This document shows, piece by piece, positions 679 to 5,744 of a stretch of 64,000 nucleotides of DNA. Below the pieces are notes generated by a model that was not told the DNA's origin, did no database searches, and worked only from the letters and a program-made list of their open reading frames with translations. The stretch covers positions 109,803-173,802 of the forward strand of contig CALRAM010000001.1 in assembly GCA_943353165.1 (NCBI GenBank), written 5' to 3'. How positions within the stretch are numbered: the stretch's first letter is position 1; each line of letters starts with the position of its first letter. The stretch is from an uncultured Candidatus Saccharimonas sp. (GTDB taxonomy: Bacteria > Patescibacteriota > Saccharimonadia > Saccharimonadales > OMJO01). Position numbers and translations under genes: made by a program.

Positions 679-754
679 GCCGACGTAGCTCAGTGGTCAG
701 AGCGGCTGTTTTGTAAACAGCGGGTCGTGGGTTCGACTCCCTCCGTCGGCTCCA
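679..754 (+). tRNA. tRNA-Thr (anticodon UGU)
   Basis: Cloverleaf read by eye. Acceptor GCCGACG/CGTCGGC; D-arm GCTC..GAGC; anticodon stem GCTGT/ACAGC with loop TTTGTAA (T33, TGT, A37); T-loop TTCGACT; encoded CCA. One U-U mismatch in the T-stem. Confidence 0.85.
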
Positions 755-767
755 AGAATTATCTCAT

Positions 768-853
768 GCAGGGTTAGTGAAGCGGTCAAACACAACAGAC
801 TGTAAATCTGTCGGCTTATGCCTTCGTAGGTTCGAATCCTACACCCTGCACCA
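768..853 (+). tRNA. tRNA-Tyr (anticodon GUA), long variable arm
   Basis: Acceptor GCAGGGT/ACCCTGC; anticodon stem ACAGA/TCTGT with loop CTGTAAA; long variable arm CGGCTTATGCCTTC; T-arm GTAGG-TTCGAAT-CCTAC; encoded CCA. Confidence 0.9.
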
Positions 854-1097: not shown

Positions 1098-1319
1098 TTG
1101 CAACATGCGCTGACTCGTCCCGAGACGTATTATTGGGGCACCGAGATAGACCTCGACGATCCGGCCGACTCGCCTTACCTTGATACTATCGAAGACCTGG
1201 TTGAGACCAACAGGTTCGTAATGACCTCATGGGGAGCTTTTATCCCTTTGTTTGAAGATGACATAGCTATTCCGTACCCAAGTATTGTCGAGCTCCCGCT
1301 CGATATGCGCCTAGATTAA
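1098..1319 (+). CDS. hypothetical small acidic protein (TTG start in the ORF track)
   Basis: 73-aa ORF followed by a hairpin with a T-run. No recognisable motif. Confidence 0.3.
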   Translation: MQHALTRPETYYWGTEIDLDDPADSPYLDTIEDLVETNRFVMTSWGAFIPLFEDDIAIPYPSIVELPLDMRLD

Positions 1320-1330
1320 TATTATTTATT

Positions 1331-1361
1331 TCGCTCTTATCTGTATTAAGGGCGATTTTTT
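1331..1361. terminator. hairpin + T-run between convergent genes
   Basis: TCGCTCTT..loop..AAGGGCGA followed by TTTTTT. It sits between the 1098-1319 (+) and 1382-1711 (-) ORFs. Confidence 0.45.
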
Positions 1362-1381: not shown

Positions 1382-1711
1382 CTATTTATTTTTGAGTGCT
1401 TTTTTTTGGAGTCGTTTTTGGGCTGCAATGCGCACCAGAATATTGAGGCTGGCAGCAATAATACCAACGCCTATCAGCACATAAAATATCGTAAATAGCT
1501 TGGTGCCTGGTGTGGTGGGGTGAATATCGCCGTAACCCACGGTGGTAATAGTGATCACCGAAAAATAAACCGCGTCTATCCAGCTCAAGTGCAGGAACCT
1601 ATGATAAAAGACCGATCCAGTAGCAATCACAGATAAGGCTGTTAGCACCACCCACTTGAAGTGTAGGGCTGTATCAACTGCTTCAGAGGTAGTTTGTTTA
1701 GACATATTCAA
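1382..1711 (-). CDS. minimal two-TM potassium channel (pore-only, KcsA/Kcv-like)
   Basis: 109 aa: TM1, pore helix, canonical selectivity filter TTVGYGD, TM2, basic tail. Confidence 0.85.
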   Translation of the reverse strand: MNMSKQTTSEAVDTALHFKWVVLTALSVIATGSVFYHRFLHLSWIDAVYFSVITITTVGYGDIHPTTPGTKLFTIFYVLIGVGIIAASLNILVRIAAQKRLQKKALKNK

Positions 1712-1771
1712 TATTATAGTCGTTTTTGCATTGGATATCTATATTATAAAAATCTTATGCTAAAATAAATT

Positions 1772-2554
1772 ATGATGAAACCAAAAACAGATCAAGGCAA
1801 AAAACTACAGCGATTCAATTTTATTATGGGCTCTGTGCATCTAGTGCAAGCATCAGCCATGCTGATAATTTTAAATTACGCCTTAAAGCTACCTATTATT
1901 ACTAGATTTTTTGATATAGATCCCAATGGAGAATATGCTGTGGTAACCGAAACGCTAGTTAGGGTACCAATAGCCATTGTTGGCCCACTATTTTTGCTGG
2001 TGGCAGCGTTTTTTCACTTTTTTGTTGCTTCGCCATTGTACGTTCGACGCTACGAGGCAAATATAAAAAATGGTATCAATCCAATGCGCTGGCTAGAGTA
2101 CTCCATTAGTTCGTCGCTGATGATTACAGCGCTACTGATGATGGGTGGACTAATCGAGCTGCCAAGCGTAGTTTTTGTTTTTACTCTGAATTTTTTGATG
2201 AATATCTGGGGCTTAGAGATGGAGCGCTACAATCAGCTAACCAATAAAACATCTTGGTTTCCATTCAATATCGGCATTATCGCCGGCATAGTACCCTGGA
2301 TAATCGGAGGTATTTACTTTTGGGCCAGTACCAACAACATTGCCGATTCTATACCATGGTACGCCCAGCTAGGTTTTGTGGTAACATTTTTGCTATTTAA
2401 TACCTTTGCTATCAATATGTGGCTGCAGTACAAACAGATTGGCAAATGGAAAAACTACGTCTATGGCGAGCGAACCTACATTTGGTTGAGCCTTATCGCC
2501 AAATCGTTACTAGCCTGGATAATAGTTCTAGGCACCCTGAGCGCTACCAACTAG
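1772..2554 (+). CDS. heliorhodopsin (7-TM retinal protein, inverted topology family)
   Basis: 260 aa. It follows heliorhodopsin 48C12 blocks as I recall them: LQRFNFIMGSVHLVQ, RWLEYSISSSLMI (counterion-position Glu109, nt 2096-2098), IAGIVPWI, GERTYIWLSLIAKSLLAW (Schiff-base-position Lys244, nt 2501-2503). Confidence 0.85.
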   Translation: MMKPKTDQGKKLQRFNFIMGSVHLVQASAMLIILNYALKLPIITRFFDIDPNGEYAVVTETLVRVPIAIVGPLFLLVAAFFHFFVASPLYVRRYEANIKNGINPMRWLEYSISSSLMITALLMMGGLIELPSVVFVFTLNFLMNIWGLEMERYNQLTNKTSWFPFNIGIIAGIVPWIIGGIYFWASTNNIADSIPWYAQLGFVVTFLLFNTFAINMWLQYKQIGKWKNYVYGERTYIWLSLIAKSLLAWIIVLGTLSATN

Positions 2555-2632
2555 CGCCTAGCGCCGGCCGGGGCAAAAGGGGTATAATGAAGCGATGAAG
2601 AATTACTACCGAATTATGTTGGGGGCGGGGAG

Positions 2633-2980
2633 ATGAGCGAACTCGAAAAGATGCAAAAGCGAGTAATCGATTTCCGCGACGCACGCGATTGGAAACAATT
2701 TCATAACCCAAAAGATATGGCTATTTCGTTAAATCTTGAAGCATCTGAATTGCTTGAGCACTTTCAATGGAAAGACAGTGAGGAAATAAGTGATTACATC
2801 AAAAAAAACAAGTCATCAATAGCAGACGAGCTTGCCGATGTTATGTACTGGGTACTACTGATGGCCAATGATATAGATGTGGATATTACTGAAAGCTTTG
2901 AAAAAAAGATGAAACACAATGAAGGTAAATATTCGATTGAAAAAGCCAAGGGTAACCATAAGAAATATACTGAGCTATAG
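2633..2980 (+). CDS. mazG: MazG-type all-alpha nucleoside triphosphate pyrophosphohydrolase
   Basis: 115 aa. Motifs: RDWKQFHNPKDMAISLNLEASELLEHFQW and ELADVMYWVLLMAN, a typical small MazG/YpjD signature. Confidence 0.75.
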   Translation: MSELEKMQKRVIDFRDARDWKQFHNPKDMAISLNLEASELLEHFQWKDSEEISDYIKKNKSSIADELADVMYWVLLMANDIDVDITESFEKKMKHNEGKYSIEKAKGNHKKYTEL

Positions 2981-2983
2981 CGC

Positions 2984-5023
2984 ATGGCGCAAATAATAAC
3001 ATTTGATTTCAGCCCAATAGGTTTTGACGAGGTGCGTGATTATCATTACGGCCGTGACTGGCCTGTTGTCTATATACTTGAGTCAAATAACGAAGCATAC
3101 GTCGGTGAAACCACGAATTTTTATAACCGAAGCAGGCAGCACTATGAAAATCCCGACAGAAAGAGGTTAAAAAATGCTCATATTATTACAGATGAAACAT
3201 ATAACAAGTCTGCCGCTTTAGATATAGAATCATTTCTTATAACACATCTTGCCGCTGAGGGTACTTTTTTATTGCAAAATAGAAATGACGGTATACGTGA
3301 TCACAACTACTATCAAAGGGATGAGTACCAGGCAAAATGTGAAGTTATCTGGAAAGAACTGATTGAGAAAAAACTTGTTCAAAAAGAAGTTTATGAGATA
3401 GAAAATAGTGACCTATTCAAATACTCACCATATAAGTCATTGACTGAAGAACAACACGATTTTGTTAAGCAGTTGGTTGAAGATATTGAAAAGGATAATG
3501 CCAAAACGTATGTAGTAGAAGGTGCACCAGGCACCGGGAAAACAATCCTCGCCACATATCTTGTGAAGTATTTGAAAGATAGACGAAGCACAAAACATTT
3601 AAAGATTGCGCTTGTGGCGCCAATGTCGAGCTTGCGCGGGACAATACAGCAGGTTTTCCGTGCAACAGCCGGCCTTAAAGCAAATATGGTGATTGGACCT
3701 AGCGGGGTAGCAAAAGAGGCATACGATCTTGTAATTGTTGATGAGGCGCACAGACTTAAAAAGAGAAGAAACCTCGGCGCTGGATTTGGAGCATTTGATA
3801 ATGTTAATAAAAAACTTGGGCTTTCAAAAGAATCCACTCAACTTGACTGGATTCTTGGGAGTTCAAAGCGTCAGGTCTTGTTTTATGATCAAGGACAGAG
3901 TGTTTTGCCCTCAGACATTCATGACATAGATTTACGTAGCAAGGGTGCGCAATTTTATACGCTCACAAAACAGATGCGCATACAGGCTGGTGAAGAATAT
4001 GTTCTACTAGTCGAAGCTATACTTAATCAAAGGGAAATTATTAGCACAAAACTAAATAATTATGAATTTCAAATATTTGATGATGTCGCAGAAATGCACC
4101 ACGCGATCAGGCTTAGAGATAAAGAGCACGGACTCTCTCGCCTTGTTGCAGGTTTTGCATGGCCATGGTTTACTAATCCAGCAAGTCCTGGCCCAAAACA
4201 AGATTATGATATTGAGATCAATGGTTATAAATTAAGGTGGAATAATAAAACAAAGGACTGGGTGAACTCAACTGGTGCTATTAATGAAGTGGGGTGTATT
4301 CATACAGTACAGGGCTATGGAATGAACTATGTGGGTGTGATTATAGGCCCCGAGCTTTATTATGATGAGAAAAATAAACGAATAACGGTAGATAGAAGTA
4401 AATACTGTGATCGCAATGGGCATGCTGGTGTTACGGACCCTGATGAGCTAGAGCGGTATATTAAGAATATATACAGAACATTGCTTACTCGTGGTATAAA
4501 AGGTACCTATGTATATATTGTTGATGAAAATCTCAGGAATTATTTTAAGATGCTGTTAAACCAAGAAACTGCTCAAGAGCCGCTGGCTGAAGTATTTTAT
4601 AGTGAAAATAAAGTATTGGACTTCCTTAAAATGAAAATGGTCGGAATACCTTTGGTTGGTTCTGCCCCTTGTGGCAACCCAATGCTCGGGGAAGAGAATA
4701 TTGAAGAATATATTGAAGTCGAAAAAAGCAAAATTAGACCCGGCTACAATTACTTCATACTACGTGCGATTGGTGACTCGATGAACCTTGCCGGAATAAA
4801 TGATGGCGATTTAGTACTCTGTCGTCAGCAATTAAAGGCCGACACTGGTGACAGGGTGGTTGCACTCTTAGGTGACAATGTGACAATAAAAGTATATGGG
4901 CCTCGTAAAGACGGCGTGCGATTTCTTTTGCCGAACAGCTCGAATAGTGAGCATGCCCCTATAGCCCCCAGTGAAGGCGATAGTGTACAGGGCATTGTGC
5001 AAGAAGTTTTAACTGCAGATTAA
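2984..5023 (+). CDS. three-domain protein: N-terminal GIY-YIG-like (COG3410 type), DUF2075/Schlafen-like P-loop helicase-type ATPase, C-terminal LexA/UmuD-type S24 self-cleaving peptidase domain
   Basis: 679 aa. PVVYILESNNEAYVGETTNFYNRSRQHY (GIY-YIG-like); Walker A GAPGTGKT; Walker B LVIVDEAHRL. The C-terminus aligns by eye to LexA: IPLVGSAPCG (Cys563-Gly564, nt 4670-4675, UmuD-like cleavage pair), GDSM (Ser599, nt 4778-4780), VTIKV (Lys636, nt 4889-4891). It starts 4 nt after the mazG stop. Confidence 0.8.
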   Translation: MAQIITFDFSPIGFDEVRDYHYGRDWPVVYILESNNEAYVGETTNFYNRSRQHYENPDRKRLKNAHIITDETYNKSAALDIESFLITHLAAEGTFLLQNRNDGIRDHNYYQRDEYQAKCEVIWKELIEKKLVQKEVYEIENSDLFKYSPYKSLTEEQHDFVKQLVEDIEKDNAKTYVVEGAPGTGKTILATYLVKYLKDRRSTKHLKIALVAPMSSLRGTIQQVFRATAGLKANMVIGPSGVAKEAYDLVIVDEAHRLKKRRNLGAGFGAFDNVNKKLGLSKESTQLDWILGSSKRQVLFYDQGQSVLPSDIHDIDLRSKGAQFYTLTKQMRIQAGEEYVLLVEAILNQREIISTKLNNYEFQIFDDVAEMHHAIRLRDKEHGLSRLVAGFAWPWFTNPASPGPKQDYDIEINGYKLRWNNKTKDWVNSTGAINEVGCIHTVQGYGMNYVGVIIGPELYYDEKNKRITVDRSKYCDRNGHAGVTDPDELERYIKNIYRTLLTRGIKGTYVYIVDENLRNYFKMLLNQETAQEPLAEVFYSENKVLDFLKMKMVGIPLVGSAPCGNPMLGEENIEEYIEVEKSKIRPGYNYFILRAIGDSMNLAGINDGDLVLCRQQLKADTGDRVVALLGDNVTIKVYGPRKDGVRFLLPNSSNSEHAPIAPSEGDSVQGIVQEVLTAD

Positions 5024-5056
5024 CGTTATGGCTGCCCCAAAACCCCATAATCATCT

Positions 5057-5090
5057 CCCTACTATAACTGCCGCCCGCCGCGTGGTAAGA
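5057..5090 (+). promoter_or_regulatory. copy 1 of the repeated motif CCCTACTATAACTGCCGCCCGCCGCGTGG..., with a degenerate -10 (TGGTAAGAC) and no downstream + strand gene
   Basis: Near-identical over about 28 nt to the copies at 5745, 6909 and 7913. Confidence 0.4.
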
Positions 5091-5146
5091 CCGGCCCAAC
5101 AGCTTGACATCGACTCGCCCCAAGTTCAGCACTAGATAAGATACTG

Positions 5147-5680
5147 CTACTTTTGTGAAGTGTAAAAAATGCGAGTCTTGTTGGTAAGCAATTCATAATC
5201 CTCGTCGCTGTATGCGCAAATAATTATTTCGCTAATTGGGGCGACTGACTCTTGCTGGTAGCTGTGTATGGCCTCATGTGCTAGATCGATAGCTTCTTCT
5301 TTTGGATAGCCATAAACGCCAGCTGAAATTAGTGGGAAAGCAATGGAGCTTGAGCCACTTTGCTCGGCTAGCCACAAGGACTGTAAGTAGGCGCTCTTTA
5401 GCAGCTCTGAGGTGTTGCGACTGTTATCATAAATTGGCCCTACCGCGTGCACAACATATTTAGCAGGCAAATTGAATCCAGGAGTAATTACTGCCTCGCC
5501 AGTCTCGCAAATACCAATGGTGGTGCAGGCCTCGGCCATTTCGTGCCACCCAGCAGCATCAAAAATAGCCCCGCATACACCAGAGCCACCTAAAAGTTGA
5601 GTGTTTGCAGCATTAACAATACAATCAACCTCCAGCTTTGTTATATCGCCTCGGTGTACTTTGATTTTATTTTTTTGCAT
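5147..5680 (-). CDS. macrodomain protein (ADP-ribose binding / O-acetyl-ADP-ribose deacetylase, YmdB-like)
   Basis: Motifs: GDITKLEVDCIVNAANTQLLGGSGVCGAIFDAAG and IAFPLISAGVYGYP. The ORF extends to 5725, but the Met at 5680 (MQKNKIKVHRGDIT) fits the family N-terminus. Confidence 0.85.
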   Translation of the reverse strand: MQKNKIKVHRGDITKLEVDCIVNAANTQLLGGSGVCGAIFDAAGWHEMAEACTTIGICETGEAVITPGFNLPAKYVVHAVGPIYDNSRNTSELLKSAYLQSLWLAEQSGSSSIAFPLISAGVYGYPKEEAIDLAHEAIHSYQQESVAPISEIIICAYSDEDYELLTNKTRIFYTSQK

Positions 5681-5744
5681 AGCATTATTATAGTCTATAT
5701 TCCTGCTGCAAATAACCCCAAACACTAAACCCCAAAATTCACAA

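Follow-up and report, generated by a model that had tools for sequence, protein, structure and literature searches.

The window analysed here is a stretch of 64,000 nucleotides from an uncultured Candidatus Saccharimonas sp. (contig CALRAM010000001.1, positions 109,803 to 173,802), and near its left end a gene for a heliorhodopsin (HeR) lies back to back with a gene for a small, pore-only K+ channel. Both genes belong to known families, and it is the pairing itself that constitutes a new lead: no report of a HeR-K+ channel pairing was found in the literature searched, and published surveys of HeR neighbours list no K+ channel. A first-pass annotation of this DNA had proposed that the channel is a dedicated partner of the HeR and that the two genes share one short divergent control region. 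The window holds a single HeR and a single channel gene, laid out as follows.

1382..1705, minus strand: coding sequence of the pore-only K+ channel with two transmembrane helices, 107 aa from the ATG at 1705; the open reading frame (ORF) extends to a TTG at 1711 (109 aa).
1712..1771, no strand assigned: divergent spacer of 60 nt with two putative back-to-back promoters, in which conservation across seven aligned spacers is limited to the two -10 blocks.
1713..1741, minus strand: promoter-like site of the channel, with -35 TAGATA (1741-1736), a 17-nt spacer and -10 TATAAT (1718-1713), scoring 10/12 in a promoter scan.
1755..1766, plus strand: extended -10 of the HeR gene (cTTATGcTAAAAT), 8 nt before the ATG at 1775, seen upstream of channel-linked and channel-less HeRs.
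1775..2554, plus strand: HeR coding sequence, 259 aa from the ATG at 1775, or 260 aa from the ATG at 1772 (ORF 1772-2554).

The HeR ORF matches Pfam PF18761 over its full length (E=7.3e-81; 271.5 bits against a curated cut-off of 26.7), the alignment spanning residues 12-256 of the 260 and the whole of the profile (positions 1-242 of 242). Its best relative of solved structure in a PDB search is TaHeR (6is6, E=9.5e-54), with further matches to 9ljj (E=1.9e-47), whose chain we take to be the 48C12 sequence, and to 6su3 (E=2e-47), where the chain is named 48C12. In the TaHeR and 9ljj alignments, RWLEYSISSS pairs with RWFEYSISAS and RWVEYSLSSS, and the counterion Glu of helix 3 is conserved as Glu109 (260-aa numbering), the counterpart of E107 in 48C12 and in the 9ljj chain. 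LSLIAKSLLAW pairs with LSLVAKSALAW, such that the Schiff-base Lys244 corresponds to K241 of 9ljj, and the SxxxK motif of helix 7 (S240-L-I-A-K244) aligns with SLVAK of 9ljj and with TaHeR. His23 and the FHF histidine are also conserved in the PDB alignments. Chiriac et al. 2022, with 80 HeRs from Saccharimonadia, give SLIAK among the common motifs. A search of the window for a type-1 rhodopsin, made with an approximate bacteriorhodopsin query, yielded no significant match (best E=0.61).

The true start of the HeR gene is probably the second ATG, at 1775 (259 aa, MKPKT...), because homologs begin with MKPKT and the position of the -10 box is conserved. The N-terminus is basic (MKPKTDQGKKLQR), which fits the positive-inside rule for an N-terminus predicted to be cytoplasmic. 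The suggestion of the first-pass annotation that the chromophore is scavenged agrees with Jaffe et al. 2022 (PMC9296517), who describe rhodopsin-bearing Saccharibacteria without blh and propose retinal uptake from hosts.

The channel ORF is recognised by Pfam Ion_trans_2 (PF07885; E=1.1e-21, 76.9 bits, cut-off 22.5), and its top PDB match, NaK2K (3ouf, E=1.5e-16), covers residues 21-91, the pore helix being flanked by the two transmembrane helices. The TTVGYGD filter, at residues 56-62, is invariant in 11 of 11 aligned orthologs, the C-terminal tail is basic, and a protein of 107-109 aa has no room for a gating domain and carries no sensor domain. Translation probably starts at the ATG at 1705 (107 aa), because orthologs align from MSK/MTK and the -10 box keeps its position. 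The product is a minimal two-helix channel, predicted to be K+-selective, and the gene is lineage-wide in Saccharibacteria. With these Pfam and PDB alignments, the gene identities given in the first-pass annotation are borne out, as are its two-helix, pore-only channel with a perfect filter and, by alignment to 48C12 and TaHeR, the Schiff-base Lys and counterion Glu that it had named.

With the corrected starts (1705 and 1775), the spacer separating the two genes measures 69 nt. On the channel strand, the TATAAT box lies 7 nt before the ATG and is kept in orthologous loci; the HeR strand has an extended -10 (TGcTAAAAT/TGcTATAAT) 5-8 nt before the ATG across aligned loci, and the motif cTTATGCTAAAAT stands upstream of HeR in nearly all contexts, channel-less ones included. 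Because the -10 boxes of the window are only 7-8 nt from each ATG, both mRNAs are probably leaderless. No shared operator was found in the seven aligned spacers. Each gene apparently has its own promoter, and the extended -10 of the HeR gene apparently moves along with the HeR ORF. Of the shared divergent control region proposed earlier, the short spacer stands, but shared control is not supported, given two separate -10 boxes, one of which also precedes HeR in channel-less loci. Whereas known HeR-partner pairs are co-oriented and have one predicted promoter, the two genes of the window are divergent.

Other genomes have the same adjacency. Related loci (designated by L numbers), the closest of which come from freshwater Saccharibacteria/Patescibacteria metagenome-assembled genomes (MAGs), were sampled from both sides of the pair. 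Sampling centred on HeR, by a genome scan, a metagenome scan and one extra look-up, found the channel divergently adjoining HeR in L001, L008 and L029/L030, and not beside it in L002, L003/L022/L033, L004-L006/L025/L027/L028, L020, L021, L024/L026, L031, L032 and L062; among 12 Saccharibacteria HeR lineages sampled independently, the channel is present in ~3 and missing from 9. Sampling centred on the channel gave eight orthologs at 65-94 % identity, five of them picked regardless of HeR, and all eight, including 5/5 of those so picked, adjoin a HeR. Counted as distinct lineages at >=65 % identity, ten of ten Saccharibacteria channels have a divergent HeR neighbour (the window, L001, L008, L054, L059, L045, L048/57, L042, L055 and L050). 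L056, a candidate for a channel without HeR, was dropped as identical to L055. Neither of the two channel orthologs at 48-53 % identity has a HeR, both following DUF5652/PIF1 instead, and the pairing recurs within a single clade. The link thus looks asymmetric and loose, at 10/10 from the channel side versus ~3/12 from the HeR side. In other phyla (Parcubacteria, Nitriliruptoraceae, Gaiellales, Thermoleophilia and others), a K+ channel beside HeR was found in 0 of ~18 loci.

The junction itself tolerates insertion. Six of the ten channel lineages have the genes directly abutting across spacers of 63-85 nt, three have TspO between them and one has a 131-aa ORF, such that a gene is inserted in 4/10; in the three TspO lineages, TspO is the first gene of a TspO-HeR operon and faces the channel. 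Furthermore, Cupin_2, the 133-aa ORF, TGT, SfLAP and ABC2 on the channel side are also conserved across these loci, and the retained HeR-channel junction is therefore not exceptional. How the flanks of the pair are built in the window can be read from four further features.

679..853, plus strand: tRNA-Thr(TGT) and tRNA-Tyr(GTA), found by ARAGORN and Rfam, with a rearrangement boundary just right of both.
1098..1319, plus strand: orf73, left over from a conserved 133-aa gene by 5' truncation; related loci have this gene convergent to the channel.
1331..1355, plus strand: terminator-like hairpin with a T-run, from a terminator scan, separating the channel from the convergent orf73 remnant.
2552..2632, plus strand: GC-rich palindrome with a GGTATAAT promoter-like or 5' untranslated region element, directly 3' of the HeR stop, marking the right homology boundary and leading into a MazG-like gene.

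On the left, orf73 corresponds to the C-terminal 78 residues (56-133) of the 133-aa protein of L054 at 82 % identity, and has homologs in 13 loci; an assignment to DUF7672 was rejected, as there is no Pfam match. Nucleotide homology with L054/L008 starts at 1071, placing a rearrangement breakpoint at ~1071, right of tRNA-Tyr. The boundary of the left block falls inside a neighbouring gene, the orf73 remnant, which looks like passive retention.

On the HeR side, HeRs 84-95 % identical to that of the window adjoin unrelated genes. Nucleotide homology with the channel-less loci L020, L002 and L021 (84-93 %) starts at 1753-1756, which is 16-19 nt upstream of the ATG of HeR, and ends at 2578-2593, the shared span consisting of the -10 box, the HeR ORF and a short 3' element. 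L020 opens with the same tRNA-Tyr 3' end (window 806-853 equals L020 1-48 at 100 %), and a kinase-like gene and an ABC exporter stand there in place of orf73 and the channel. This 605-aa exporter (L020:856-2673, minus strand) is the divergent upstream neighbour of a HeR 95 % identical to that of the window, an arrangement that parallels the OcHeR-OmrDE pair discussed below. The closest relatives of the two window genes differ: the channel is 94-97 % identical at the nucleotide level to those of L054/L008, and the HeR is 78-92 % identical to the HeRs of those same loci but 90-98 % to those of channel-less L020/L023. Mosaicism was compared over window positions 1833-2554 against L054, L020 and L021, and in the L021 HeR identity jumps from 62-71 % to 98-99 % inside the gene, marking an internal breakpoint. 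HeR alleles therefore recombine between contexts, and the make-up of the window suggests that a left flank of the channel type has been joined to a HeR and right flank of the L020 type. In the HeR tree, channel-linked HeRs are basal and paraphyletic, with channel-less HeRs nested among them, a topology that fits one ancestral arrangement followed by departures or extra copies.

Two cases bear on copy number. L032 has tandem HeR genes on one contig (948-1727 and 1837-2292), and one MAG carries two HeR alleles, as L007 and L008 overlap at contig ends with 95 % identity; multi-copy HeR may account for some of the channel-less loci. Carriage by phage was considered as a source of HeR mobility and set aside, there being no match in 50,697 phage records. 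The idea of a dedicated channel is not supported by these comparisons, since channel orthologs at 48-53 % identity occur in HeR-free contexts, close relatives of the HeR sit beside unrelated genes, and the window allele is of the same type as one found beside an ABC exporter.

The explanation we favour, with middling confidence, is that the locus consists of two autonomous genes of known families that are inherited back to back, with HeR as a portable, self-promoted unit. Both would be functional-looking membrane-protein genes, one for a retinal-binding HeR and the other for a minimal two-helix K+ channel, each driven by its own -10 box situated 7-8 nt from the ATG. The arrangement would have arisen once, in the ancestor of one Saccharibacteria lineage, and been inherited since, with single genes (TspO, the 131-aa ORF) occasionally inserted between the two. 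The portable unit would comprise the HeR ORF, its extended -10 and the short 3' element, and homologous recombination inside the HeR gene would swap flanks between genomes; in the window, a channel-type left flank would thus have been joined to an HeR and right flank known from a channel-less, tRNA-Tyr-linked site. Adjacency would then be inherited synteny and not the mark of a dedicated sensor-effector pair, and the effector of HeR, if it has any, need not be encoded next door. On this reading, HeR and the channel would not be coupled. The readings that compete with this explanation draw on genes at the related loci.

L003:6310-6948, plus strand: TMEM175 gene (PF06736), present also in L022 and L033.
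L042:4533-4928, L048:4543-4911, L055:4542-4937 and L057:4543-4935, minus strand, and L024:4544-4939, plus strand: TspO genes.
L042:3057-3716, L045:3464-4132, L048:3032-3706, L055:3054-3710 and L057:3032-3706, all minus strand: ORFs of ~220 aa.
L042:1359-3055, L045:593-2325, L050:5400-7114, L055:1359-3052 and L061:3751-5483: ferric-reductase/NOX-like genes.

The first of these readings is that the pair forms a two-component, light-modulated K+ conductance, a tentative proposal to which we give distinctly less credence. Photoactivated HeR, in a long-lived intermediate, would touch the channel either inside the membrane or by way of cytoplasmic loops and tails, and the resulting shift in channel open probability would make the K+ flux and membrane potential of the epibiont responsive to light; HeR copies that have relocated would be served by a channel encoded in trans. 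Several observations lend weight to this proposal and count against plain synteny. Viewed from the channel side, the pairing is invariant, both in the ten lineages and in the five orthologs picked regardless of HeR. Of the first ten genes in the window, all but the orf73 remnant, the channel and HeR are missing from every related locus, and the pair has therefore survived rearrangement on both sides; across the ten lineages the outer flank of either gene occurs in 4-5 states, and the channel always faces HeR or the HeR operon. The channel, moreover, has no gating or sensor domain of its own. HeRs have been shown by experiment to bind and regulate proteins encoded by their neighbours, a membrane transporter among them, as in the case of OcHeR, which binds OmrDE, an ABC exporter, and up-regulates it when illuminated (PMC11109279). 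Lastly, in L003/L022/L033 the HeR gene is followed on its own strand, 187 nt further downstream, by a gene for a K+ channel of the TMEM175 family (E=1.6e-24), which has no structural relationship to the TVGYG channel.

In its broader form, this reading would make HeR, within one Saccharibacteria lineage, a regulatory photoreceptor for K+ channels in a retinal-scavenging epibiont, acting on the adjoining pore-only TVGYG channel and, in another sub-lineage, on TMEM175, which is possible but doubtful. The case for TMEM175 as a fully independent second association is weakened by L061, in which a single 10-kb region contains TMEM175, the TVGYG channel and, ~8 kb from TMEM175, HeR. An RCK-gated K+ channel (Ion_trans_2 with two TrkA_N/TrkA_C; L011:137-1948, plus strand) lies ~4 kb upstream of HeR in a Nitriliruptoraceae MAG, and this actinobacterial case can be cited in favour, but it is not adjacent and is within chance expectation. 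Against either form, the two genes are divergent and not co-transcribed, with their own promoters and no shared operator; HeR is often without the channel (the 9/12 lineages above), and deeper lineages have the channel without HeR. An allele near-identical to the window HeR occurs next to an ABC exporter, and there is no channel-specific type of HeR.

A second, unlikely reading is that HeR and the channel belong to a loosely linked light/redox membrane neighbourhood without direct contact, whose members (HeR, TspO, a ~220-aa polytopic protein, a ferric-reductase/NOX-like protein with cytochrome b5, the two-helix channel and TMEM175) would be kept close by being co-expressed, or required at the same time, in surface water that is sunlit and oxidising. 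TspO/MBR is immediately upstream of HeR in at least four lineages (L042, L048/L057, L055 and L024), with and without the channel, likely as a TspO-HeR operon, and no mention of heliorhodopsin together with TspO was found in the literature searched. The ~220-aa ORF encodes a fast-evolving polytopic membrane protein of 218-224 aa without a Pfam family; in five lineages it follows HeR with a gap of 1-7 nt or an overlap of 4 nt, and it looks translationally coupled to HeR, which would make it a stronger candidate than the channel for a co-transcribed partner. The ferric-reductase/NOX-like gene (Ferric_reduct, FAD_binding_8 and NAD_binding_1) and cytochrome b5 are found within a few kb of the pair, on a side that varies by lineage, in L042, L045, L050, L055, L057 and L061, and the same region of L061 also has pirin, GGDEF, MFS and TMEM175. 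Bulzu et al. 2021 (PMC8612252) connect HeRs with oxidative-stress genes, reporting glutaredoxin/GSHPx, glyoxalase, catalase and histidine kinases near HeRs, with no mention of potassium. Against this reading, the window is without these extra genes, TspO and the ~220-aa ORF being absent from all of its 64 kb, no shared regulatory motif was found, and membership varies in a way that plain synteny would explain equally well. That the pair is a one-off coincidence, or that either ORF is spurious, is very improbable in view of the strong family matches of both ORFs and the recurrence of the pair in many independent assemblies.

The DNA to the right of HeR has features of its own. The first 38 nt of the 3' element (2552-2589) follow the HeR stop in L020, L021 and L023 as well, and a 75-nt copy of the palindrome/GGTATAAT element is found again after orf211 in L020/L023, where the element brackets an inserted 211-aa gene (copies at L020 2719-2743, 3596-3633 and 4276-4350; L023 656-693 and 1333-1407; L021 1431-1464). 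The element opens into different defence-type genes, a MazG-like gene in the window and a Type ISP restriction enzyme in L020, and the site looks like a cassette hotspot. In the window, a defence-like cluster at 2633-5725 encodes a MazG-like pyrophosphatase, a fusion protein and, on the opposite strand, a macro-domain protein. The fusion protein, of 679 aa, combines GIY-YIG, a Schlafen-type helicase and an S24 peptidase, with weak AbiO/Nhi-like PADLOC matches.

Experiments have so far established three types of HeR partner (glutamine synthetase, photolyase and an ABC exporter), none of them from the candidate phyla radiation. Cho et al. 2024 (PMC11109279) define ten operon groups, with no channel group, and Patescibacteria are not among the groups analysed. 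The pairing is thus a testable lead on HeR function, with small proteins (259 aa and 107 aa) to which only retinal has to be added. A K+ channel partner, if true, would be a new class of HeR output, and nature would supply a template for optogenetic tools that control K+ conductance with two components. Even without coupling, the locus illustrates a photoreceptor gene spreading between tiny genomes as a self-promoted single-gene unit, by recombination inside the HeR coding sequence.

Compared to 48C12 and TaHeR (6su3, 6is6), the window HeR shares the full-length family match, the counterion Glu of helix 3, the SxxxK Lys of helix 7 and His23; unlike them, it is saccharibacterial and forms a portable one-gene unit that includes an extended -10, and its photochemistry and function are predicted. 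The channel has in common with NaK/NaK2K of Bacillus cereus and the MthK pore a two-helix pore module of ~100 aa that lacks a gating domain and bears the TVGYGD signature. The K+-type filter is native in the window channel, whereas in NaK2K it is an engineered mutant; the tail of the window channel is short and basic, and its selectivity and gating are predicted from sequence. Kcv and KcsA are other pore-only channels. A further K+ channel family, TMEM175 (PF06736), occurs immediately 3' of HeR in the Saccharibacteria loci L003/L022/L033, but it is not present in the window, and its adjacency to HeR may stem from a local deletion, given the ~8 kb of L061.

As in the OcHeR-OmrDE, HeR-glutamine synthetase and HeR-photolyase pairs, the window has a HeR beside a candidate effector, and one of those proven partners is likewise a membrane protein, the transporter. 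Those partners are co-oriented, lie in one predicted operon and have had binding measured, whereas the window pair is divergent, with separate promoters, and is a candidate pair. Light control through a membrane partner is exemplified by sensory rhodopsin II-HtrII, which signals to a transducer and kinase, and light control of K+ conductance by the kalium channelrhodopsins, which are single-chain light-controlled K+ channels, and by BLINK1, an engineered synthetic LOV-Kcv fusion. To our knowledge, none of these consists of a heliorhodopsin and a separate tetrameric K+ channel; the pair of the window, if coupled, would resemble them in light control exerted via a membrane partner, or in light control of K+ conductance.

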